Of a stretch of 55,754 nt of DNA, positions 35,908-49,444 are shown one piece after another. Numbering within the stretch: the stretch's first letter is position 1; each line of letters opens with the position of its first letter. This DNA is from Candidatus Omnitrophota bacterium (GTDB lineage: Bacteria; Omnitrophota; Gorgyraeia; Aquiviventales; Aquiviventaceae). The notes under the pieces were generated by a model. It searched no databases. It saw nothing but the letters and a program-made list of their open reading frames with translations, and was not told where the DNA came from. The DNA is taken from contig JAHFGX010000003.1 in the NCBI GenBank assembly GCA_023247215.1, positions 1 to 55,754 on the forward strand, given 5' to 3'. Both the position numbers and the translations under genes were made by a program.

Positions 35908-36915
35908 ATGTCGTTGGTCAGCGTCATTGCGCTCAATTGGAATCGGAAGGAGTTGCTTCGCGAGTGTCTTGAGTCGCTCGAGCGTCAAACGTTTCGGGAT
36001 CTCGAGGTCATCGTTGTGGATAATGGGTCAACCGATGGCTCCGTCGAGTTGGTACGGCAGCGCTTTGCCTGGACGCGGCTCGTGTCGCTTCCGCACAACT
36101 GCGGGTTTTCTGGCGGGAACAATATCGGGATCCGTCATGCCACGGGCACCTATATCGCCCTGTTGAGCAACGATGTGGTGGCATCTCCTGGGTGGCTCAC
36201 GGCCCTCGTCTCCACGATTGAGAAGTATCCGGAGGTTGGGTTCTGTGCGTCAAGGATCCTCTTCTATGATCAGCCGGAGCTTCTGAACAGTACTGGGATT
36301 CTCTATTTTCCAACGGGGGAGGCAATTGATCGCGGGTGGATGCAAATGGATGGGCCTCAGTTTAGTCAACCTGATTACCCAATCGGGGCCTGTGCCGCCG
36401 CCGCCCTCTATCGGCGCGCGATGCTGGAGGAGATTGGTCTGTTTGATGAGGAGTTTTCACCTGCCTACTACGAAGACGTGGACTTAAGCCTTCGCGCCCA
36501 GCTCCGGGGCTATCGTTGTGCGTATGTACCCGCGGCGGTCGTCCACCATCGCTTTGCCTCCACCATGGGGTACCGATCGCCTGAGCATGTCTACTTATGC
36601 GAACGCAATCGCTGGTATGCCCTCATCAAGAACGTCCCATTGCGGACCCTCATCAAATACGGACGGGTGATCGTAACCATCGCCAGACGGCGGCGCGTTG
36701 ATCACGTTCGTGCAGGGGAAGGGAGACCATTTGTGTCGGGACAACTGGCCGCGTTGCGCAAGCTTCCTCTCATGATGAGGAAGCGACGAGAAATCCAGCG
36801 GCGTCGCACCATCTCCGCCCGAGAGTTTGAAGCGTTACTCACCGTTCAACCTCAACCACTGCCTTCTCAAGCGCGCGTTCCAGGTTCTGGCGGGCCTCAG
36901 CCGAATCAGGCTTGA
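35908..36915 (+). CDS. Glycosyltransferase family 2
   Basis: VIALNWN, VDNGSTDGS, NCGFSGGNN, YYEDVDLSLR; alternative TTG start at 35890. Confidence 0.9.
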   Translation: MSLVSVIALNWNRKELLRECLESLERQTFRDLEVIVVDNGSTDGSVELVRQRFAWTRLVSLPHNCGFSGGNNIGIRHATGTYIALLSNDVVASPGWLTALVSTIEKYPEVGFCASRILFYDQPELLNSTGILYFPTGEAIDRGWMQMDGPQFSQPDYPIGACAAAALYRRAMLEEIGLFDEEFSPAYYEDVDLSLRAQLRGYRCAYVPAAVVHHRFASTMGYRSPEHVYLCERNRWYALIKNVPLRTLIKYGRVIVTIARRRRVDHVRAGEGRPFVSGQLAALRKLPLMMRKRREIQRRRTISAREFEALLTVQPQPLPSQARVPGSGGPQPNQA

Positions 36916-38479
36916 GCCGGACGGCTTCGGAGAACTGCGTGGCGGCTTCTACGAAGCGGTGCTGCTCTGCCAGGAGGACGCCGAGGTTGTTGTGGGCGTT
37001 CGCCAAGTCAGGCTGAAGCCTGAGCGTCTCGGTGTAGTGTCTCATGGCTTCTTGGGTATTTCCTTGCAGCCCAAAGACCATCGCCAGGTTGTAGTACGGT
37101 TCGGGGGCCTCAGGGGAGAGCTGAATGGCGTAGGTCAGGTGGGCCACGGCCTCATCGAGTCTGCGCTCTCGAGCCAGCGCCTTCGCCAGGTTGATATGAG
37201 CGCGCGGGTTGTTAGGGCGCTTGGCCACCGTATCGCTCCAAATGGAAAGATTGCTGTGATAATCAGCGTTTCGAAGAGCCGTGGCCAATCCTAGCGCGGC
37301 CACGCTGCCGACGACTAGAGCCGCTGACAGCGCGTGCCGTCGGCGAGGGTGGCGAGGCAAGAAACGCATAGAGAGCTCATACATGCCCAGGACGATTCCC
37401 GTGAGAACCGCAGCGAGGGGTAGGTACATTCGATATTCAGAGATCAGATCCGCGAGGGGGATAACGCTGGACGTGGGGGCCAAGATCAGGAAGAACCAAA
37501 CCCCCAAGAAACTGAGCGGCCGGTGACGCCGCCATCCCCACGCCGTTAACAGCAACGCGCTGCCAACCAACGAAGCGGGAAGCGCAATCTCTCTCAAGCT
37601 TCTCGCCGCCGGCCAGACGTAATCGAAGCAGAGGGGGTGCGGCCAGAGGGCCAGGCGAACATAGTGCACGAGAATGCCAGGCTGGGTCATGGCGTACGAC
37701 AGCGGCGTAAGACCAGGGATGCCAAATCCTGCCGAAGGATTCGCCATGGGGTGGATCTGCCGCAGGAGCAGAGGCGGGAGACTGCAGGTCACGACCAAGC
37801 CAAGGTAGAGCGTTCCACGATGGCGGAGTGCCTCCATGGTTGATCGGGCCAGGAAGCAACGGTCATACAGCAGCACCATCAGCGGGGCGGTGATCATGAC
37901 GGGTTTGCTCCCCATGCCGAGTGCGCATGAGACGACGGCCGCCGCATACCATCCCCAGCGGTAGGTGGCACCGCTGCCTCGCAAGACGCAATACAGGGTC
38001 AGGAGGTAGAAGAGCCCCATAAGCGACTCCGCCCGTTGCGTGAGGTAGGTCACGCTCTGGGTCTGGAGGGGGTGGGCCACCCAGAGCAACGCCACCGCCA
38101 ACGCGAGCCACGGAGCCGCGTGTCCGTAGCGGGCCCGCAGGCGCTCGCTCAGGAATGTCCGTCGGACGAGGCCAAAGAGCGCCAGGGCCGTCAGGACATG
38201 GATCACCAGGTTGACGACGTGGTATCCCCACACGTTGAGGCCGCCGAGGGCGTCATTGAAGGCGAACGACAGCTCCACCGTCGGCCGATGCGTGCCAGTC
38301 AGGAGCCACCCCATCGGCCAGGGGTGGCGGACATTGGGATTGTCGCGGATGACATGGTAGTCATCGAAGATGAACGGACCGGAGAAGCTGTTGTGGTACG
38401 CGGCGAGGCCGGCGATGATGATGGCCCATCCCATCTCGCGAAGCGCGGCGCGTTTCCGCTGATGACCAGCCGCTTGCAT
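36839..38479 (-). CDS. TMTC-like multi-pass membrane glycosyltransferase with C-terminal TPRs
   Basis: FIFDD loop after TM1, HRP, YHVVNLVIH, HPLQTQSVTY, SEYRMYLP, RNADY, then about 3 TPRs. Confidence 0.75.
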   Translation of the reverse strand: MQAAGHQRKRAALREMGWAIIIAGLAAYHNSFSGPFIFDDYHVIRDNPNVRHPWPMGWLLTGTHRPTVELSFAFNDALGGLNVWGYHVVNLVIHVLTALALFGLVRRTFLSERLRARYGHAAPWLALAVALLWVAHPLQTQSVTYLTQRAESLMGLFYLLTLYCVLRGSGATYRWGWYAAAVVSCALGMGSKPVMITAPLMVLLYDRCFLARSTMEALRHRGTLYLGLVVTCSLPPLLLRQIHPMANPSAGFGIPGLTPLSYAMTQPGILVHYVRLALWPHPLCFDYVWPAARSLREIALPASLVGSALLLTAWGWRRHRPLSFLGVWFFLILAPTSSVIPLADLISEYRMYLPLAAVLTGIVLGMYELSMRFLPRHPRRRHALSAALVVGSVAALGLATALRNADYHSNLSIWSDTVAKRPNNPRAHINLAKALARERRLDEAVAHLTYAIQLSPEAPEPYYNLAMVFGLQGNTQEAMRHYTETLRLQPDLANAHNNLGVLLAEQHRFVEAATQFSEAVRLKPDSAEARQNLERALEKAVVEVER

Positions 38480-39139: not shown

Positions 39140-39565
39140 ATGGGGAGCTGCGTTCGCGGGTTTACCCTGATGGAGCTGCTGATCGTCGTGGTGCTGGTCG
39201 GCATTTTGGCTGCCGTCGGATATCCTGCGATGACCAAGGCGATGGAGCGAGCCTACTGGCGCGCGGCGCAGGATGTGCTCAAGACGATTTATGCGGGGGA
39301 GCGGACCTACTTTTTTGCGAATAACGCCTACTATAATGTGGATGAATCGGTTGCCGGCATGACGGAGTGGCGGAAAATCTACACGGATGATCCAAATCTT
39401 GGCTCTATTCCGGTCAAGTATTGCGTGACGGCTGCCGCGGCCACCACCTTTACCGCGTGGGCCTGCCGGAGTTCGACGGCTTGCAGTGCGGGATGCGGAG
39501 CAGAGAAGGGGATCTCCATCAACGAGGTCCGCACGATTGATACCAGCGATTGGCCAATGCCATGA
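39140..39565 (+). CDS. Type IV minor pilin (PilE-like)
   Basis: RG-FTLMELLIVVVLVGILAA prepilin motif; Cys-rich C-terminus. Confidence 0.88.
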   Translation: MGSCVRGFTLMELLIVVVLVGILAAVGYPAMTKAMERAYWRAAQDVLKTIYAGERTYFFANNAYYNVDESVAGMTEWRKIYTDDPNLGSIPVKYCVTAAAATTFTAWACRSSTACSAGCGAEKGISINEVRTIDTSDWPMP

Positions 39566-39576
39566 GGGGGGACGGG

Positions 39577-39996
39577 ATGAGACAGGTGCAGCGAGGAATT
39601 ACCTTGATTGAAATCCTGGTGGCGGCGGTGATCGCCGCCGTGGTCGTCGGGGGCACGATGACGGCGTTCCTCAGTGCCACCAAAGTGTCCAAGGTCTCTT
39701 CCGAAGAGGTGGGGAGTGCGGCGTACGCCCAGCAAACGATCGAGCGGTTTCGAAATAAAATCGCTTGCCGCCAGAGCACGGAACTCGCCACCGACACGTG
39801 GTTTGACAGCGCCTGCGCTCCGGCGGCGCCTTCGGGGTTGCAAACCGACGGCGATATCAGCGGCTCCGGAATCCCAGGGGCCACGCGTCAGTATCAGGTG
39901 GTCGCGATGGATTGCAACGGGGATAGCGATGCACTCGATGGCATTGACGATTGCTTGCAGATGACTTCCACGGTCCACTGGACGCCGGCCCAATGA
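39577..39996 (+). CDS. PilV/GspI-like minor pilin
   Basis: RG-ITLIEILVA; alternative ATG at 39562 overlapping the upstream stop. Confidence 0.82.
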   Translation: MRQVQRGITLIEILVAAVIAAVVVGGTMTAFLSATKVSKVSSEEVGSAAYAQQTIERFRNKIACRQSTELATDTWFDSACAPAAPSGLQTDGDISGSGIPGATRQYQVVAMDCNGDSDALDGIDDCLQMTSTVHWTPAQ

Positions 39997-40658
39997 CCCC
40001 CCGACACCTGATGCCAACCCACCCCCGCTTCTCAGACCGCGCGGGGTTGTCGCTCCTGGAGTTGTTGATTGCCGGGACCTTAGGGCTGGTGGTCATTCTC
40101 GCACTCAGCCAAACCGACGTGAGCCGGGTGCGGCTGGGCGACCGGATCAGTGAAGCCGTCTTCCGCCATGCCGATGCGCGCAGCGCCATCGGGCACGTGG
40201 TAAAGCGGCTGGAAGCCGCGGATCGCGTCATCTTGCTGGATGCCAGCAATGCCGCCTGCCAGTCGAGCTGCGTCTCCGTGCAACTTCGGATCCCTCCGAC
40301 TGATCCAACGCAGCTGGACACTGCGGCCAGTTATCAGTGGGTGCAGTATAAGCGGGATGCGACCAGCAACGAGCTTCGATATTACAGCCCCGCCTCCTCC
40401 TGTGCCATCGCGCTGAGCTTCAAGGATGTGACCGGTTTCACGCTCAGCTACGAGAACCAGAGCCCCGCACCGCCTGGTGGGGAACCGATGGGAGTCAGCG
40501 ACAGCAATCTGGTGCAAGTGAGCCTGGTTGCGACTGATCCGAAGACAGGCGACACGACGACCTTTCCAGCTTCGGTGACGATTCGGGGGGCTGGGTATAC
40601 CAATGTATCCAGCGGGTTGTCGGAAGCGGGTCCGCAGCCTCCGGCGCCGTGTTCGTAA
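39993..40658 (+). CDS. PilW/GspJ-like minor pilin
   Basis: AG-LSLLELLIA; ATGA overlap with the upstream stop. Confidence 0.8.
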   Translation: MTPRHLMPTHPRFSDRAGLSLLELLIAGTLGLVVILALSQTDVSRVRLGDRISEAVFRHADARSAIGHVVKRLEAADRVILLDASNAACQSSCVSVQLRIPPTDPTQLDTAASYQWVQYKRDATSNELRYYSPASSCAIALSFKDVTGFTLSYENQSPAPPGGEPMGVSDSNLVQVSLVATDPKTGDTTTFPASVTIRGAGYTNVSSGLSEAGPQPPAPCS

Positions 40659-40692
40659 CGCGACGATGAGATCAGCCTAAGGATATCTAGCC

Positions 40693-42369
40693 ATGGCGCG
40701 GCAGGGTGTCAGCTTGGTGATCAGGCCTGGAACGGTGGAAGTCATCCAGGCCGTCCAAGGCCTCCAGGGGATTCGCGTGACCCACGCGACCCGCGTGTCG
40801 GTGAAGGGATCTGACGATGCGCACATGGTGGAGGCCATCAGCACCGCCTTGGATCTGGCCCATGTCAAGACGCGAAGCGGGATTGGCGTCTGCCTGGCTG
40901 CGCAGGATGTCCTCCTCCGGTTCTTTACCATCCCGCTCCTGCCGAAACCGGAGTGGACCAATGCCATCCAGTTTGAAGCGCGCAAATATGTACCGTTCAA
41001 AACATCTGACTTGATTTGGTGTTATCAAGCGGTCGAGCAGCGGGCGGCCAGTCAATTGGCGGTGGTGTTCACGGCCATCCGCAAGGATGCGTTTGAGCGG
41101 CTGCAGGGGTGGCTCAGCCAAGCGGACGTTCAGGCGACCTTCATCGAAGGGCAGAGCTCCAGCTTGGCGCGGGCGGTTGCGAATGTCCAATCAGCGCGTT
41201 CCGCCGAAGTTGTTGCAGCCATTGATGTGGATGAGGCGGCTAGCGTCGCGCATGTGATCATCCTCAAGGGCGATTTGCTCTATCTGGCGCGCGACATTAA
41301 TTTGACAGCCCGGGCCGGGGGCGAGCCAGCGTTGATGGAGCCCTCGCCGGAGGCGGCTGCCCCCACGGTGGGAGAAGGAGCGGCAAGTTTTGACCAGGGA
41401 TCGGAGACAGAACGTGCGCCGGAGACGGCCTCCTCCAACGAAGACCATCGAGTGGAGCGGCTGCTGGGAGAGATCCGACTGTCCCTTGATTTCTTTGCGC
41501 GGGAGCATCCCGGCTTGGCATTATCTCGCGTGGTCCTGTTCGGGGATGCGCATACCGTGCAGCCCTGGAGTGTCTGGCTAAGCGAGCAGTTGCATTGCCC
41601 GGTTGAGGTCGGCGCGCTCCCCCTGGCAACGCCGCGCGGCCAATCCATGTCATTGGAGTATGCCTCTGCCTTAGGGACCATGCTGCGGCAGTTTAAGCCC
41701 GCGCCCACCCAATGCAACTTCTTGGTGTCAGCAAAATCAGTGGCTCCTCGCGTGACCGTGACGTTAAGCCGCGGCCTCAACCCGCAAGAGGCTCGGGTGA
41801 TCCTCAAAGCCATGACGAAGCCGCTGGCGATTCAGAGTGTTGTAGCCGCCATTGGGCTGGGTGTCCTCTGGTACGTCGTCCGGCAGAATGTGGCGACGGC
41901 GCACGCGCAGTTGGCGGCGGCCAAACAGCAACAACATGAGATGAAGTGGAAATTGGATGCTCGGAGCCAAGAGGAATTGGCGGCGCTCCAGCAACAAGCC
42001 CAGCAGCGGATCGGCGTCTTGAGGGGTCTGGTTGATGACCGGGTGATTGTCACCGAAAAACTGGACGCCCTCGCGCGCGCCTTGCCGGATGGCATTTGGT
42101 TGGAGGGATTCCGCTACGACAATCGTTTTCTGGATCAGACCAGAACCGAGACCTCGTTGACCATCCGGGGCGCATGTTTTCTGCCGGAAGAAAAGAGCAC
42201 GGAGTTGTCAGTTATTGGAGAGTTCACGAGCCGCGTCCGGCGCGATCCGAGGTTCTTCAACGGATTCACCAGCGCTCAGTTGGGAGAAATTTCCGTCAAG
42301 GAAGACAATCCGCGCTATACGTATCGAACGTTTAAGCTGAACTGCAGCAGCTCAGGGAAGCGACTCTAA
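40693..42369 (+). CDS. PilM-PilN fusion (GspL-like architecture)
   Basis: PilM-like AIQFEARKYVPF and EIRLSLDFF...VVLFG, one TM segment, then PilN-like KLDALARALPDGIWL...LTIRG. Confidence 0.75.
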   Translation: MARQGVSLVIRPGTVEVIQAVQGLQGIRVTHATRVSVKGSDDAHMVEAISTALDLAHVKTRSGIGVCLAAQDVLLRFFTIPLLPKPEWTNAIQFEARKYVPFKTSDLIWCYQAVEQRAASQLAVVFTAIRKDAFERLQGWLSQADVQATFIEGQSSSLARAVANVQSARSAEVVAAIDVDEAASVAHVIILKGDLLYLARDINLTARAGGEPALMEPSPEAAAPTVGEGAASFDQGSETERAPETASSNEDHRVERLLGEIRLSLDFFAREHPGLALSRVVLFGDAHTVQPWSVWLSEQLHCPVEVGALPLATPRGQSMSLEYASALGTMLRQFKPAPTQCNFLVSAKSVAPRVTVTLSRGLNPQEARVILKAMTKPLAIQSVVAAIGLGVLWYVVRQNVATAHAQLAAAKQQQHEMKWKLDARSQEELAALQQQAQQRIGVLRGLVDDRVIVTEKLDALARALPDGIWLEGFRYDNRFLDQTRTETSLTIRGACFLPEEKSTELSVIGEFTSRVRRDPRFFNGFTSAQLGEISVKEDNPRYTYRTFKLNCSSSGKRL

Positions 42370-42385
42370 GGATGCTCACACCTAC

Positions 42386-42898
42386 ATGAACCCGGCGTTG
42401 ATTTCCGGCATCATTGTGCTTGCATTGGCCGCACGGGTAGGATACGTTAATATCTATCTCTCAGGGCAAGAGGAGGTTCGGCACGTTCGTGAAGAGCAGC
42501 ATCGGCTGGAGGAGTTTCAAAACTTGCGGCTGCAAGTGGCCTCGGCTCTCGACCGAGCAGAGCATCTTCGCACAAAATTTGGCCAGAAAGCCGAACCAGA
42601 TGGGCTAATGCAAGAAGTGGACCGATTAGCCCAGAAGGTAGGCGTTCAGTTGGGCAGAATCGGGCCAGAACAAACGCGGGAAGCCAGCGGGTTCCTGTAT
42701 CTGGCCATTTCCTTGGAGGTGACCTGCACGTATCACGAATTGGGCCGCTTTCTGAGCGAGATCGAAAGCTCTGACACCTTCTTTATCCGGGTGGATGAGC
42801 TGGATGTGTCCCGGATCGTCGATCCCCAGGGCTTGGCGGCGACCAAGCTGGTGCTTAGTACGCTGTATGTGCCGCCGTTACTCGAGCCGCAGGGTTGA
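42386..42898 (+). CDS. PilO/GspM-like alignment protein
   Basis: N-terminal TM, coiled coil, TYHELGRFLSEIES. Confidence 0.78.
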   Translation: MNPALISGIIVLALAARVGYVNIYLSGQEEVRHVREEQHRLEEFQNLRLQVASALDRAEHLRTKFGQKAEPDGLMQEVDRLAQKVGVQLGRIGPEQTREASGFLYLAISLEVTCTYHELGRFLSEIESSDTFFIRVDELDVSRIVDPQGLAATKLVLSTLYVPPLLEPQG

Positions 42899-42900
42899 GC

Positions 42901-43545
42901 ATGGACCCGCAGCAAAAGGCGAAGTTGCAGAAGGTTGCCATGGTGCCGTTGGTTGGCGTGTTCGCCGTCGCGCTGTTGAATTCGCTTCGGAGCGCCGGCC
43001 TGCTGAGCAGGCCGCCCGCCGCTTCCCTCACCGCTGCGCCCGTCGTATCTGCGCCCACCGCGCCTGCCCCCACCGCGTCACGAACGCCTGCGCTGGAGAA
43101 AACGTCCGGGAAAGCCTCCGGGCCGCCCGCCGCGGCTGCCGCGAAGGTCGACGGCGATGCGGCGCGCATTCCCTATACGGCGGAAGCTGATGGGATCCGC
43201 GATCCTTTTGTGGATCTCCTGCCTTCCGACGCGCCGGTCGTCGCCGAAGTCCAGGCCCCTGCGCCCACTCCCGTGGTCTGGCCCACCGTGGTTCTTCAAG
43301 GCATTATCTGGGAAGCGAAGGCCCCTCACGTCATTATTGATGGCCAAATCTACCGTACAGGAGACACGGTGCAGGGCATGCGGGTTGTTTCTATTACTCG
43401 AACCGGAGTGACCGTGGAAATGCAAGGATCCAGGACCCAACTCATGATGTCCAACTCACAACCCCAGATGGCGTCTCCACAAGGGCAGGCGACCGGGCTG
43501 GCGTCGCCTTATCCGCCGTCTCGATTTCCCGGAGGTGAACGATGA
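42901..43545 (+). CDS. PilP/GspB-like protein
   Basis: N-terminal TM, Pro/Ala linker, RDPF, LQGIIW...IIDGQIYRTGD; alternative TTG start at 42895. Confidence 0.65.
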   Translation: MDPQQKAKLQKVAMVPLVGVFAVALLNSLRSAGLLSRPPAASLTAAPVVSAPTAPAPTASRTPALEKTSGKASGPPAAAAAKVDGDAARIPYTAEADGIRDPFVDLLPSDAPVVAEVQAPAPTPVVWPTVVLQGIIWEAKAPHVIIDGQIYRTGDTVQGMRVVSITRTGVTVEMQGSRTQLMMSNSQPQMASPQGQATGLASPYPPSRFPGGER

Positions 43546-45248
43546 GGTTGCGCGTCTGGTCAATGGCAGTCGCGACTGCCCTGGTGATCGTTGGAGGAGA
43601 AGCGGCCTACTCGGATTCTGATTCGGCGGCGCCGGCGCAAGGTGAAGAGCAGCCGCACGCGAGCATCACGGTTTCGACCCCGGCTTCGACCTCATCGGAT
43701 GCGTCTTCGAAATCGGAGTCTGCTTCGGAAGAAACCGTGCGTCTGTCCATGAACTTCCAGGACGTTGCGCTGAAAGACGTGTTGAAGGCGTTTTCCCAAC
43801 AAACCGGCATCAATTTAATTGCTAGCGAAGAGGTCGAGGACCGAAAAATTACGCTCTACTTGGAGGATGTCACCGCACTAGATGCACTGGATCAAATCCT
43901 CCGGGTTTCGAATCTCACCTATGAGCGCCCCGCCGGGAGCCAAATTTATGTCGTCAAGCCGAAGCCGGAAGGCGCGGAGGCTGGGGTTGTCGCCACGATT
44001 ACCCGTGTCTACCGGATGAAATATGCCCGGGTCTCCAACTCCCGCTTGGCGCAGCAAGCCAATTCAACACTGAGCGCCTTGGGGAGCGGGGGTGGGGGCA
44101 GCGGAGGGAGTTCCGGAGAATCGTCCTCTTCATCTTCATCCGGTTCATCCGGCGGCTCCAGTTCAAGCTCAAGCTCAGGGGGCGGCGGTGAGGGAGGCGG
44201 CGGGGAAGGGATTGATACGGTGATTGGAAAGCTGCTGACGGAAGATGGGAAGGTGATGGTGGACGGCCGAACGAACAGCTTGATCGTCACCGATGTTCCC
44301 ACCAATTTTCCGCGCGTCGAGGCCGCTATTGCCAGCTTGGACGTGAAAACCTCCCAGCTTCTCATCGAGGTGGAGCTCATCGAAACGTCGCTCTCCAAGC
44401 TCAAGGATTTAGGGATCGAATGGGGAACCGGTTCGGAAGGCAATATGCTCAAATTCATTCCCGGCCAGAAGTCCACGCAGTTTCCGTTTGTGTTTGTGCG
44501 GGAACAGTCGCAAACATTTCTTTCGGCCCAGAGCGGATTGACGAGCGCCACCAAGCCAGGGCAAATCGCGCTGGGGACGGTGGATGCCTCGCAGATGACG
44601 GCGATCCTCCAGGCCATTCAGAGCGACTCGGACACCAGGATTCTGGCGCGGCCGAAGGTGCTGACCTTGGACAACGAAAGCGCCGTGATTCGCATGACGA
44701 CGAACCAGGCTATCGGCTTTCTGACTACCAATCAGGCCACCACCGGGACCACCTCCGCTGCCCCGGAGCGGGCGCCGACCGGCGTGCTCCTCGTGGTGAC
44801 GCCGCAGATCAACCAGGACGGCTATGTGACAATGCTGGTCGAGCCATCGGTGACCAAGGCCACGACGTCTCAAGTCACCCCGCCGTCCGCCGTCGGCGGC
44901 ACCATTCGTGATACCAAGACTCGCAGCGCCCGGGCGCTTGTTCGGGTGCGCAATGCGGAAACCCTGGTCCTGGGGGGGCTGATTGACCGCACCCAAGAGC
45001 ATGTGGTGCAGCGAGTGCCCTTCCTCTCCGATATCCCGCTGATCGGCGGGGCATTTAAGGATACTGAAATCACGGATACCGAAAGCGAGCTGATTGTGTT
45101 TATCACGCCCAGAATTTTGTCGGAGCGCTATGGCGAGTGGATGGCCTCCACCGCCATACCGATGGCGGCGCGGGAGCAGGCCCCGACAGCTTCACGCCAA
45201 GAACTCATCGAACAAACGCTGAATCGCTTGGAGCAATCTCAGTTTTAG
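43542..45248 (+). CDS. Outer-membrane secretin (PilQ/GspD family)
   Basis: Signal peptide, LSMNFQDVALKDVL, DGRTNSLIV, ARPKVLTLDN, VTPQIN, VLGGLI, VPFLSDIPLIG, ELIVFITPRI. Confidence 0.92.
   Translation: MRLRVWSMAVATALVIVGGEAAYSDSDSAAPAQGEEQPHASITVSTPASTSSDASSKSESASEETVRLSMNFQDVALKDVLKAFSQQTGINLIASEEVEDRKITLYLEDVTALDALDQILRVSNLTYERPAGSQIYVVKPKPEGAEAGVVATITRVYRMKYARVSNSRLAQQANSTLSALGSGGGGSGGSSGESSSSSSSGSSGGSSSSSSSGGGGEGGGGEGIDTVIGKLLTEDGKVMVDGRTNSLIVTDVPTNFPRVEAAIASLDVKTSQLLIEVELIETSLSKLKDLGIEWGTGSEGNMLKFIPGQKSTQFPFVFVREQSQTFLSAQSGLTSATKPGQIALGTVDASQMTAILQAIQSDSDTRILARPKVLTLDNESAVIRMTTNQAIGFLTTNQATTGTTSAAPERAPTGVLLVVTPQINQDGYVTMLVEPSVTKATTSQVTPPSAVGGTIRDTKTRSARALVRVRNAETLVLGGLIDRTQEHVVQRVPFLSDIPLIGGAFKDTEITDTESELIVFITPRILSERYGEWMASTAIPMAAREQAPTASRQELIEQTLNRLEQSQF
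44080..44210 (+). repeat. Gly/Ser low-complexity coding tract inside the secretin
   Basis: Encodes GSGGGGSGGSSGESSSSSSSGSSGGSSSSSSSGGGGEGGGGEG; boundaries approximate. Confidence 0.8.
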
Positions 45249-45333
45249 CTCAGTGATGGACACAGGATCACGATTACCTCTCCTTGAGCAGACGGCTCAG
45301 GGAATCTGGAGGCCGCGTCGAGGCGTGATGCCG

Positions 45334-47039
<1,706 letters not shown>

Positions 47040-47040
<1 letters not shown>

Positions 47041-48272
47041 TGCCCACCTTCCTGTATGCCGCGCGCGATCGAAGCGGCCTGGTCCAGACGGGCCATGTGG
47101 ATGCGGCCACGGAAGACGAAGTGCTGTCGGTGTTGCAAAGCCGAGGGCTGTTCGTCACGTCGGTGTCCCGGAAAGACCTTACCGCGGCCGGAGGGACGGC
47201 TTCAGGCGCGCAGCTAAAGCGCAAGCTGCATGGCCGCGTGACGACGGAAGATAAAACGATGTTCTGCGAGCAGCTTGCCACGCTGTTGGAAGCCGGGGTG
47301 CCATTATTGAGGAGCCTGCAAATCCTTTGTGACCAAGTGGAGAGCCGCCCTTTGTTGATCGCCTTGCAGGGCATTCGGCGCGACATTGAAGGCGGCAAAA
47401 CCTTCCACGAAGCTGTTGCCAAGTACCCCAAGATTTTTTCGCCGTTTTGGGTCAACGTGATCGAGACGGGGGAAGCCAGCGGGCGGCTGTTCCAGGCCAT
47501 GACCCAGCTCGTCCAATATTTGAAAACCGCTGGGGAATTGCAACGCAAAGCCGTGACGGCATTTACGTACCCTGCCGTGTTGATTGTGGCAGCGATCGGG
47601 GCCTTGTTTATTTTTGCGCTCAAGATCATCCCCATTTTCAGCGGCATGTTCAAGAGCATGAACGTCCAGTTGCCGTGGTTGACGCAGGTAATCATTTCCT
47701 TCAGCGAAGTGCTCCAGCACTATTTCCTCGTGATTGTGGTGGGCACGGCAGGGCTTGTCTACGCCGGTAAACGGGTCCTGCAGTCGGAGCCGGGACGGTG
47801 GGCGATGGATCGGCTCCTGTTGAAGCTTCCGGTGTTTAGCCCCTTGTTCACTCAAATGGAGCTGGCGCAATTTTCGCGCGGGTTGAGTTCATTATTGGAC
47901 AGCGGCGTGCCGATTCTGTTGGGGTTGGACATCATGCAGAAGAGCGCGACGAATAAGGTCTACGGCAAAGCCTTTGGAGAAATCCGAGACCACGTGCGCG
48001 AGGGGCGCCCGATGGCCCAACCGATGCAACAGGCGGGACTGTTTCCCGCGCTCATGGTCCAGATGATCCAGGTGGGCGAAGAGATCGGTGAGTTAGGAAA
48101 AATGCTGAATAAAATTGCCGTCTATTACGAGGCGCGGGTCAACGTGTTCATTGAGCGCTTGACGATCTTGTTTGAGCCAATTGCGATTATTTTCATGGCG
48201 GTGGTGGTGGGCACGCTGGTCGTGGCGATGTTCCTGCCCATCTTTAGCATGACGCAAATGACTGGGCACTAA
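47040..48272 (+). CDS. pilC: Inner-membrane platform protein (PilC/GspF)
   Basis: QLATLLEAGVP, GEASGRL, FTYP, LLDSGVP, VGEEIGEL, FEP, MFLPIF. Confidence 0.92.
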
Positions 48273-48285
48273 CAGACACATCAGG

Positions 48286-48306
48286 TATAATTTAAGGTAG
48301 TATAAT
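48286..48306 (+). promoter_or_regulatory. Tandem -10 boxes upstream of the major pilin
   Basis: TATAAT at 48286-48291 and at 48301-48306 in an AT-rich gap. Confidence 0.6.
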
Positions 48307-48428: not shown

Positions 48429-48824
48429 ATGCGTCACCAACGTGGTTTTACGCTCCTTGAGCTTCTCATGGTCGTCATCGTCATCGGCATCTTGGCCTCG
48501 ATCGGCCTGCCGCAGTACCTGCGGGTCACCGAACGGGTGCGCGGGGTGGAAGCCATTCAAGTCTTGGGGTCGATTCGAGCCGCCCAAGGCCGCTACCGGG
48601 CCCAATCGTCCGGCGGCGCCTTTGCGACCGCGATCACCGACCTGGACACCGACGCGCCGACGATGAAGTACTGGGACACCCCCGCGGTGGGCAACTTCAA
48701 TGGGACCAGCATGCAGTTGAAGCGGACCGGCGGGACCTACGCCACGAACGTGCTGGGGATCAACTGGAGCACCGGGGATTTGTGCGGGAACTTTGTGCCG
48801 CAGGGCGGCCTCAGCGGGTGTTGA
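48429..48824 (+). CDS. Type IV major pilin, copy 1
   Basis: AAGGAG Shine-Dalgarno; MRHQRG-FTLLELLMVVIVIGILASIGLPQY; C-terminal Cys pair. Confidence 0.9.
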   Translation: MRHQRGFTLLELLMVVIVIGILASIGLPQYLRVTERVRGVEAIQVLGSIRAAQGRYRAQSSGGAFATAITDLDTDAPTMKYWDTPAVGNFNGTSMQLKRTGGTYATNVLGINWSTGDLCGNFVPQGGLSGC

Positions 48825-49291
48825 GGGACGGGGGTGTGAAGGCGGGGGTCTCCACCCTGCGCTCGAAGGTGCCAGGCGGTGTCGGGAAGGGCCTGCGCAG
48901 CTCGAGCGCAGGGTTTACGTTGCTTGAGCTCCTCATGGTCGTCATCGTCATCGGCATCTTGGCTTCCATCGGCCTGCCGCAGTACCTGCGGGTCACCGAA
49001 CGGGTGCGCGGGGTGGAAGCCATTCAAGTCTTGGGGTCGCTTCGAGTCGCCCAAGGCCGCTACCGGGCCCAATCGGCCAGCGGCGCCTTTGCGCTCGCGA
49101 TCACCGACCTGGACACCGACGCGCCGACGATGAAGTACTGGGACACCCCCGCGGCGGCCAACTTCAATGGGACCAGCATGCGGTTGAAGCGGACCAGCGG
49201 GACCTACAGCTCGAACGTGCTGGGGATCAGCTGGAGCACCGGGGATTTGTGCGGGAACTTTGTGCCGCAGGGCGGCCTCAGCGCGTGTCCG
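48447..49291 (+). repeat. Tandem duplication of the mature pilin coding sequence
   Basis: 48447-48821 aligns ungapped to 48914-49288 (offset 467 nt). Confidence 0.95.
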
Positions 49292-49294
49292 TAA
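48836..49294 (+). CDS. Type IV major pilin, copy 2 (start uncertain)
   Basis: AG-FTLLELLMVV; near-identical to copy 1; in-frame GTG starts at 48836 or 48869, no ATG leader. Confidence 0.8.
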   Translation: MKAGVSTLRSKVPGGVGKGLRSSSAGFTLLELLMVVIVIGILASIGLPQYLRVTERVRGVEAIQVLGSLRVAQGRYRAQSASGAFALAITDLDTDAPTMKYWDTPAAANFNGTSMRLKRTSGTYSSNVLGISWSTGDLCGNFVPQGGLSACP

Positions 49295-49340
49295 GCGGTT
49301 TTTCTGCCATTTGCGCATGGGTTCTGTGACACGGTTTTTA

Positions 49341-49413
49341 GGGGCAGTAGCTCAGCTGGGAGAGCGCGACAATCGCACTGTCGAGGCCCGGGGTTCGATC
49401 CCCCGCTGCTCCA
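49341..49413 (+). tRNA. tRNA-Ala (anticodon CGC), CCA not encoded
   Basis: Acceptor stem GGGGCAG/CTGCTCC with G3-U70, D-stem GCTC/GAGC, anticodon stem CGACA/TGTCG with loop ATCGCAC, T-loop TTCGATC. Confidence 0.95.
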
Positions 49414-49444
49414 GTTCTCCGCACCATCTACTGTTTCGCTTCGC

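Follow-up and report, generated by a model that had tools for sequence, protein, structure and literature searches.

The window analysed here, a stretch of 55,754 nucleotides that is one whole contig (55.7 kb) of a groundwater Candidatus Omnitrophota metagenome-assembled genome (MAG; 1.46 Mb in 57 contigs, short-read, 92% complete, 65.7% G+C), carries at positions 48429–49294 two tandem genes for type IVa major-pilin-like proteins, hereafter gene 1 and gene 2. Our codon-level comparison reveals that the two copies differ only silently at the very start of the mature protein, are identical over the codons that follow, and differ in the head only by amino-acid replacements. The best explanation, which we hold with moderate confidence, is that the two genes are tandem pilins homogenized by gene conversion, in which the head differences have been fixed or kept by selection. 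The observation made in the initial annotation of this DNA is confirmed. As to its interpretation, support is firm where gene conversion is concerned and nominal where diversifying selection is.

Gene 1 (48429–48824) and gene 2 (48836–49294), which like all features of the window given with coordinates below lie on the + strand unless stated otherwise, were compared in an ungapped alignment of 126 codons starting from Gly(–1). The similarity starts exactly at the Gly(–1) codon (48444 in gene 1 and 48911 in gene 2) and ends at the stop of gene 1, where TGA stands opposite CCG (Pro) of gene 2, which itself ends one codon later; the leaders, the 86-nt spacer and the downstream flanks of the two copies are unrelated. 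In the 5’ segment from Gly(–1) to Ser18 (48444–48500 in gene 1; 48911–48967 as its counterpart in gene 2), five codons differ by six bases in all, and every difference is silent. Four of these codons, Leu3, Leu6, Ala17 and Ser18, are the silent differences that the initial annotation had counted in the first 18 mature codons, and the Gly(–1) codon adds a fifth. Codons 19–42 are identical. In the head region (codons 43–124; 48573–48818 in gene 1 and 49040–49285 in gene 2), 13 codons differ, all of them non-synonymously and with the same 13 replacements as first reported, and the number of silent differences is zero. The 15 base changes of the head fall on codon positions 1, 2 and 3 as 7, 8 and 0, by comparison with 1, 0 and 5 for the six changes of the 5’ end.

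From the Nei–Gojobori site counts for codons 19–125 (S = 81.7, N = 239.3), the probability of finding no silent change among 15 is 0.012. Consistent with this value, mutation models with kappa from 1 to 4 give P = 0.008–0.019 for 13 of 13 codons being non-synonymous under neutrality, and P = 2.5e-4 to 8.9e-4 at an omega of 0.5. Region is associated with type of change (Fisher P = 1.2e-4, with a partition that was drawn post hoc), and silent differences are distributed unevenly in their own right: the roughly 15 silent sites of the 5’ end hold 5–6 of them, and the roughly 82 silent sites of the remainder hold none (Fisher 5e-6 to 5e-5). Expressed as the proportion of silent sites that differ (pS), the divergence is about 0.33 in codons 0–18, 0 in codons 19–42 and 0 from codon 43 to the end. 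The replacement-only pattern of the head is real and nominally beyond chance.

A sister species of the same genus provides the comparison on which the argument for gene conversion is built. Its genome contains, before tRNA-Ala and rsmE, an array of three pilins, of which the first is partial, the second full and the third diverged, and the segment 48631–49260 of our window is collinear with the first and second pilin. In the head, pS is about 0.5 and the proportion of non-synonymous differences (pN) about 0.25 between the species; the corresponding values are 0 and 0.08 within the present genome, and 0.16 and 0.04 within the sister genome. In both species the paralogs are closer to each other than to the copies of the other species, and the finding that paralogs within each genome are far closer than positional counterparts across species indicates concerted evolution. 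A plain recent tandem duplication is unlikely, because it would have copied the flanks too, and these are unrelated. Gene conversion between the copies, as the initial annotation had suggested, is therefore well supported as the process that appears to keep them alike, through the uneven silent divergence (0 versus about 0.33), the collinearity with the sister pair and the confinement of similarity to the mature coding region; the mechanism would presumably be recombination.

On this basis, the two genes would be paralogs of long standing that lie in tandem in the same orientation and encode the major subunit of a type IVa pilus, with different leaders and the same assembly helix. The latest conversion tract would have begun near codon 19, reached the stop codon and removed all silent differences in between, and the first 19 codons would have escaped it, retaining older and purely silent differences. 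Replacements at some 13 head positions would have been fixed since then, or held against conversion, by selection for two different pilus surfaces. Candidates for the selective agent are phages that bind to pili, and the cells or surfaces used for attachment by these nanobacteria, which are presumed to depend on hosts.

The sister pair was also inspected codon by codon (L052 2–214 versus 439–651). Two of its three replacement codons are changed at all three bases against a background that is 93% identical (P = 8e-5), which hints that particular codons were kept different there too. The first 18 bases of gene 2 match copy 2 of the sister species. Orthology of the 5’ ends was considered as a further line of evidence and dropped, as no clear tree conflict emerged: over codons 0–18 genes 1 and 2 differ at 6 of 57 bases, and the sister copy differs at 9 and 11 of 57.

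An origin of the pair by assembly artefact, with two haplotypes of a single pilin gene placed in tandem or with genes that are chimeric from more copies, has to be weighed against this evidence. It would fit a short-read MAG of 57 contigs, the fragmentation of Logan contigs at this locus into several variants, and the presence of identical stretches of up to 73 nt that could mislead small-k assemblies. However, neither the leaders, nor the 86-nt spacer, nor the downstream flanks are shared between the copies, and the sorting of differences by codon position is beyond any assembler. In addition, Logan contigs of two runs span the 3’ part of gene 1, the spacer and the 5’ part of gene 2 (run X1, record 6, 333 nt, depth 15; run X2, record 13, 253 nt, depth 11), and a 142-nt portion of the gene 2 head is recovered by record 14 of run X2 with one difference. 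The Logan runs come from one groundwater study that possibly includes the source sample, so that they represent an independent assembly rather than an independent sample; the collinear array of the sister species was found in a separately assembled genome. With the bridging contigs and the sister array in hand, the artefact of two strain haplotypes that the initial annotation had raised as an objection is not borne out, and we consider such an origin highly improbable.

Tandem pilins were further surveyed at 39 loci (19 + 20) in other Omnitrophota genomes of the class, which were selected for adjacent hits in search listings and contain 49 same-strand pilin pairs (21 + 28). The mature coding regions are identical in 6 of the 49 pairs (L069, L070, L071, L072, L086 and L095). 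Four of these six were viewed base by base, and in three of them the flanks are unrelated, the identity ending no more than about 30 nt from the coding region; in one of the three, the leaders differ and the only differences are three silent ones in N-terminal codons. Leaders differ in the identical pair L072. Exact identity in the surveyed MAGs may be overstated, in that short-read assemblers can flatten near-identical repeats, and the identical pairs could reflect either concerted evolution or, in part, assembler smoothing. In the second set of loci (20 loci, 28 pairs), twelve other pairs are non-identical with at least 60% identity, six of which belong to one four-copy array (L088) and are not independent; in nine of the 12, the first 28 codons are free of replacements. 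The array itself (G374:C9:55300-57700; spacing 447 nt) is a mosaic, in which the N-terminal 28 codons form two classes that differ only silently (copies 1 and 4 versus copies 2 and 3) and the heads show pN/pS of 0.6–0.76. The class-wide picture drawn from these sequences is that of a frozen helix and a fast head, and the pair studied here appears as the extreme of that picture rather than as a separate phenomenon.

The positions of the 13 replacements were examined in an alignment of 113 relatives of gene 1. None of the 13 is among the 37 invariant or nearly invariant columns of the family, and the mean family entropy is 2.45 at these sites as compared with 1.76 at other head sites (permutation P = 0.007). 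In the predicted structure they lie at the end of the long helix (49 and 51), in the alpha–beta loop (61, 62, 67, 87 and 88), in or between strands (96, 101, 105, 106 and 112) and beside the last Cys (130). As follows from established pilus structures, the head sites would face outward in the filament. When polarized on the sister species, at least five derived states fall in gene 1 and three in gene 2; with derived states in both copies, neither copy is simply decaying. The 5’ differences of gene 2 are all silent, which indicates that its helix is under constraint.

Further sequences vary at the same positions. Two database proteins carry the leader of gene 1, namely P0001 (8 differences) and the fragment P0004 (7 of 85 residues), and gene 1, gene 2, P0001 and P0004 together define 17 variable positions, all at mature residues 43–124; five of these positions show three states. 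The alleles with the gene 1 leader have the gene 2 residue at 4 of the 13 sites. In run X1, gene 2 bases are found at codons 81 and 82 of gene 1, and in run X4, gene 1 bases are found at codons 17 and 45 of gene 2. Record 12 of run X2 is a diverged allele with 9 differences in 142 nt; of the six that are listed, five bases in four codons cause replacements and one is silent.

These data bear on an account in which selection plays no part, namely that a recent conversion or duplication was followed by drift of the two heads at positions of weak constraint, the absence of silent changes being the tail of an ordinary distribution. The differences do lie in the most variable columns of the family, other young tandem heads have already reached pN/pS of 0.5–0.76, and at 0.76, the highest pN/pS observed, the probability of an all-replacement outcome, by arithmetic from the non-synonymous fraction of the model, is about 0.003–0.007, which is not negligible across many windows. 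Against relaxed constraint, even strict neutrality gives only P = 0.008–0.019 and an omega of 0.5 gives P < 1e-3; independent alleles are variable there as well, five positions showing three states; and the listed differences of the X2 record 12 allele are mostly replacements. To drift of this kind we assign a small but appreciable probability. A targeted mutator, such as a diversity-generating retroelement that writes the head differences, would be in keeping with changes that spare the third codon position in a surface protein. We rejected this candidate on the change spectrum, in which few of the 15 changes start from A (5 when read from gene 1, 3 when read from gene 2), and on the finding of no reverse transcriptase match (PF00078) in the 92%-complete genome; moreover, neither copy resembles a non-coding template. 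Such a mutator is next to impossible here.

A strong hairpin at 48854–48914, in the spacer and gene 2 leader region, combines a 13-bp perfect stem (48854–48866 with 48902–48914) with an inner stem, and folds at –49.9 kcal/mol (z –2.73; 4 of 200 shuffles as stable). Its 3’ arm ends on the Gly(–1) codon of gene 2, where the similarity to gene 1 begins. In the sister species an unrelated sequence forms the same kind of hairpin at the same place (L052 216–268; z –3.63, 0 of 200 shuffles). The fold of the whole spacer (48800–48930) is not significant (z –1.56), and a terminator-like call at 48892–48912 is within the shuffle expectation (1 found, 1.4 expected). The hairpin is likely a 3’-end or attenuator structure of the gene 1 transcript; if so, gene 2 would be the lesser-expressed copy.

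The hairpin lends itself to an account by directional functional divergence, in which gene 2 is a weakly expressed accessory pilin and the replacements adapt it to a role of its own rather than to an arms race. The leader of gene 2 is long and unlike that of gene 1, the protein extends one residue further at the C-terminus, the hairpin stands just before the mature part of gene 2 in both species so that this gene may be reached only by read-through, and in Legionella, where pilA1 and pilA2 are two related and adjacent major-pilin-like genes, only one of the two is described as behaving as the major pilin (PMC13170364). By comparison, the derived states are split between both copies, and alleles with the gene 1 leader carry gene 2 residues at 4 of the 13 sites; exchange together with polymorphism fits better than two fixed roles. 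We regard functional divergence of this kind as quite unlikely.

A G-rich run with four G tracts of at least 3 and loops of up to 9 nt (48816–48848) lies across the stop of gene 1 and the probable start of gene 2. With loops of up to 9 nt, 182 such motifs occur genome-wide (0.125 per kb), and this one is possibly due to chance. The slightly larger segment 48803–48848 has five G tracts of at least 3 within 46 nt and matches a quadruplex pattern only with loops of 9–12 nt, a pattern with 182–353 motifs genome-wide. The G-rich motif was found in none of the spacers of five other tandem pilin pairs (0/5), and a G-quadruplex as a general feature of tandem pilin spacers was rejected on this count.

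Several points weigh against conversion followed by selection on the head. The pattern is known from one pair, chosen post hoc in a very large scan, and a P of about 0.01 would fail correction for the size of that scan. Nothing is unusual in the sister pair, where 7 of 70 codons differ silently and 3 by replacement, and the heads of the 12 other non-identical tandem pairs have pN/pS of 0.19–0.76, none above 1. The location of the differences at family-variable sites is compatible with relaxed constraint as well as with positive selection. The variants of the runs derive from short Logan contigs of low depth (2–15), and these variants could be further paralogs rather than alleles; the Logan contigs listed leave 49205–49340 uncovered and give no evidence there either way. 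The strong hairpin sits in the leader region of gene 2 and bears on its expression. Diversifying selection, the second process that the initial annotation had proposed, accordingly stands with nominal support (P of about 0.01 against neutrality, placement in variable columns at P = 0.007, and other alleles varying at the same positions) from a single post-hoc pair.

The assignment of both genes to the pilins draws on profile, fold and position. Gene 1 encodes a 131-residue prepilin whose leader of six residues ends in Gly and is followed by an N-terminus with Phe(+1) and Glu(+5); the mature protein has 125 residues with two C-terminal Cys, and the ATG is preceded by AAGGAG at a spacing of 7 nt. 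Gene 2 encodes a 152-residue prepilin, in agreement with the 152 residues of the public gene call P0002, and a mature protein of 126 residues. Its start is probably the GTG at 48836, 11 nt past the stop of gene 1 and behind a GAGGG Shine–Dalgarno-like motif, which would provide a basic leader of 26 residues; compared with the short leaders of type IVa major pilins (less than about 10 residues), that of gene 1 has 6 residues and that of gene 2 would have 26 or 15 according to the GTG chosen. The PF07963 N_methyl profile matches gene 1 with 33.5 bits (E 2.7e-8) and gene 2 with 26.0 bits (E 6.4e-6), compared with a curated cut-off of 21.2. Among the 113 relatives of gene 1, G6, F7 and E11 are invariant, and almost no variation is seen at the two Cys (precursor residues C119 and C131), which are candidates for the disulfide that bounds the C-terminal region of type IVa major pilins.

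An AlphaFold2 (AF2) model of gene 1, built with these relatives, has a pLDDT of 89.7 and consists of a helix at residues 9–59 and three strands. Its top Foldseek matches are 1oqw, 1ay2, 3sok and 2hi2 (probability 0.98–1.0, TM-score 0.5–0.6, E of only 0.01–0.05), the best of them being the full-length pilins of Pseudomonas aeruginosa PAK, of the gonococcus and of Dichelobacter nodosus at 19–23% identity. The Foldseek E values are weak (at least 0.01), and the assignment relies on the probability, the TM-score and the matches of the family profile to solved type IV major pilins in the PDB. Both products are type IVa major-pilin-like, and the role of major subunit is argued from cluster position and predicted fold; both genes are presumably expressed and their products assembled into the pilus. 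Only two copies of this pilin were found in the genome, with 9 further matches being distant pilin-like genes, and the closest relatives in public metagenome contigs reach at best 44% identity.

The two pilin genes form the end of a complete type IVa pilus cluster, the remaining eight genes of which (39140–48272) were identified by profile and domain matches upstream of the pair. They are two minor-pilin-like genes with N_methyl matches (39140–39565 and 39550–39996), a PilM-like gene with a PilM_2 match (40693–42369), PilO by profile match (42386–42898), a small gene with weak T2SSB-type matches (42895–43545), a secretin (43542–45248), a PilB-type ATPase with an MshEN domain (45253–47040) and a PilC-type platform protein (47040–48272). 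The PilM-like protein has 558 residues and its PilM_2 match is limited to residues 64–197; a fusion with other pilus assembly parts is possible. The prepilin peptidase is encoded off-contig, where a Peptidase_A24 match of 63.7 bits was found on contig C18. An AT-rich gap of 156 nt separates pilC from gene 1, and a promoter-like site assigned to this gap at 48263–48291 (TGGGCA, 17 nt, TATAAT) is a consensus match only, with 1 found against a mean of 0.3 in shuffles.

At the 3’ side, the pair is bounded by tRNA-Ala (CGC) at 49341–49413, which has its counterpart downstream of the array in the sister species and is followed by an rsmE-like gene. Between a 16-nt stretch of gene 1 (48762–48777) and the 3’ end of the tRNA-Ala gene (49401–49416), complementarity reaches 94%, probably by chance. 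Adjoining the pilus cluster on the – strand, 36839–38479 encodes a 545-residue protein with C-terminal TPR repeats and a weak PMT_2 glycosyltransferase-like match at its N-terminus (E 2e-5, slightly below the cut-off). Ser or Thr is gained or lost in 6 of the 13 pilin replacements; a link between pilin O-glycosylation and this PMT_2-like neighbour would be pure speculation.

Compared with the type IVa major pilins PilA of P. aeruginosa PAK, PilE of Neisseria gonorrhoeae and FimA of D. nodosus, the Omnitrophota pair shares the N-terminal methylation motif with Gly(–1), Phe(+1) and Glu(+5), the long N-terminal helix and small sheet, the two C-terminal Cys, and the combination of a conserved helix with a variable head. 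It is distinguished by its small size (125–126 mature residues), by an identity of 19–23% to the solved pilins and by the leader of gene 2, which at probably 26 residues is longer than usual. Concerted evolution of bacterial paralogs by gene conversion is known from tufA/tufB and from Brucella omp2a/omp2b. Our pair resembles these cases in that paralogs are closer than orthologs, tract bounds are sharp and flanks are unrelated, and it differs from them in that homogenization of silent sites coexists with 13 replacements.

Tandem second pilin genes also occur as pilAI/pilAII in Pseudomonas stutzeri and as pilA1/pilA2 in Kingella, which, together with the Legionella pair, have in common with our locus two adjacent major-pilin-like genes. 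To our knowledge, these three pairs are much more diverged than the Omnitrophota pair. The available part of the Legionella report describes no silent-free, replacement-only pattern for its pair (PMC13170364). Head variability on a conserved helix, positive selection and gene conversion are discussed for the pilins of Acinetobacter and Pseudomonas under phage and immune pressure (PMC12603735).

A parallel in mechanism is Neisseria, where it is textbook knowledge that the pilin helix is conserved and the head variable, that pilins are under positive selection and that gene conversion acts between their copies, and where pilin variation requires a G-quadruplex (G4) (PMC4534519). Our locus shares with pilE/pilS a probable recombination between copies that moves head variants, mosaic alleles and a G-rich tract beside the genes. 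In contrast to the promoterless, 5’-truncated cassettes of that system, gene 2 is complete and has its own constrained N-terminal helix; only two copies were found in the genome, and no one-way donor–recipient relation emerges between them; and the G-rich tract fits the motif only if a loop of 9 nt is allowed, and the spacers of five other tandem pairs lack it. Programmed antigenic variation of the pilE/pilS type was rejected, in that gene 2 has the whole mature coding region and lacks the defining feature of a silent donor. A minimal system of two cassettes can also be imagined, in which gene 1 would be highly expressed with a transcript mostly ending at the hairpin, gene 2 would be a weakly expressed but intact reserve, and frequent two-way conversion of short patches, perhaps stimulated by the G-rich tract or the hairpin, would shuffle head residues into the mosaic alleles of the aquifer. 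We consider this proposal very doubtful; if true, it would provide host-dependent nanobacteria with a renewable pilus surface.

Type IVa pili are widespread in Omnitrophota and have been proposed to serve the attachment of these nanobacteria to hosts or larger cells (PMC10066038). A literature search over titles and the beginnings of abstracts returned no description of pilin paralog evolution in this phylum. The process itself, diversification of pilins combined with gene conversion, is well known from pathogens, and this case matters for carrying it into a little-known, uncultured phylum rather than for its mechanism. The survey adds that tandem pilin arrays with sharply bounded, homogenized coding regions are common in the class. 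Within it, the present locus offers a clean case: two expressed-looking genes without silent differences from codon 19 on differ at 13 head residues, and these sites are also reshuffled in related alleles from the aquifer. Should population data bear this reading out, the head positions given here would mark the surface with which these bacteria interact with their hosts or phages.

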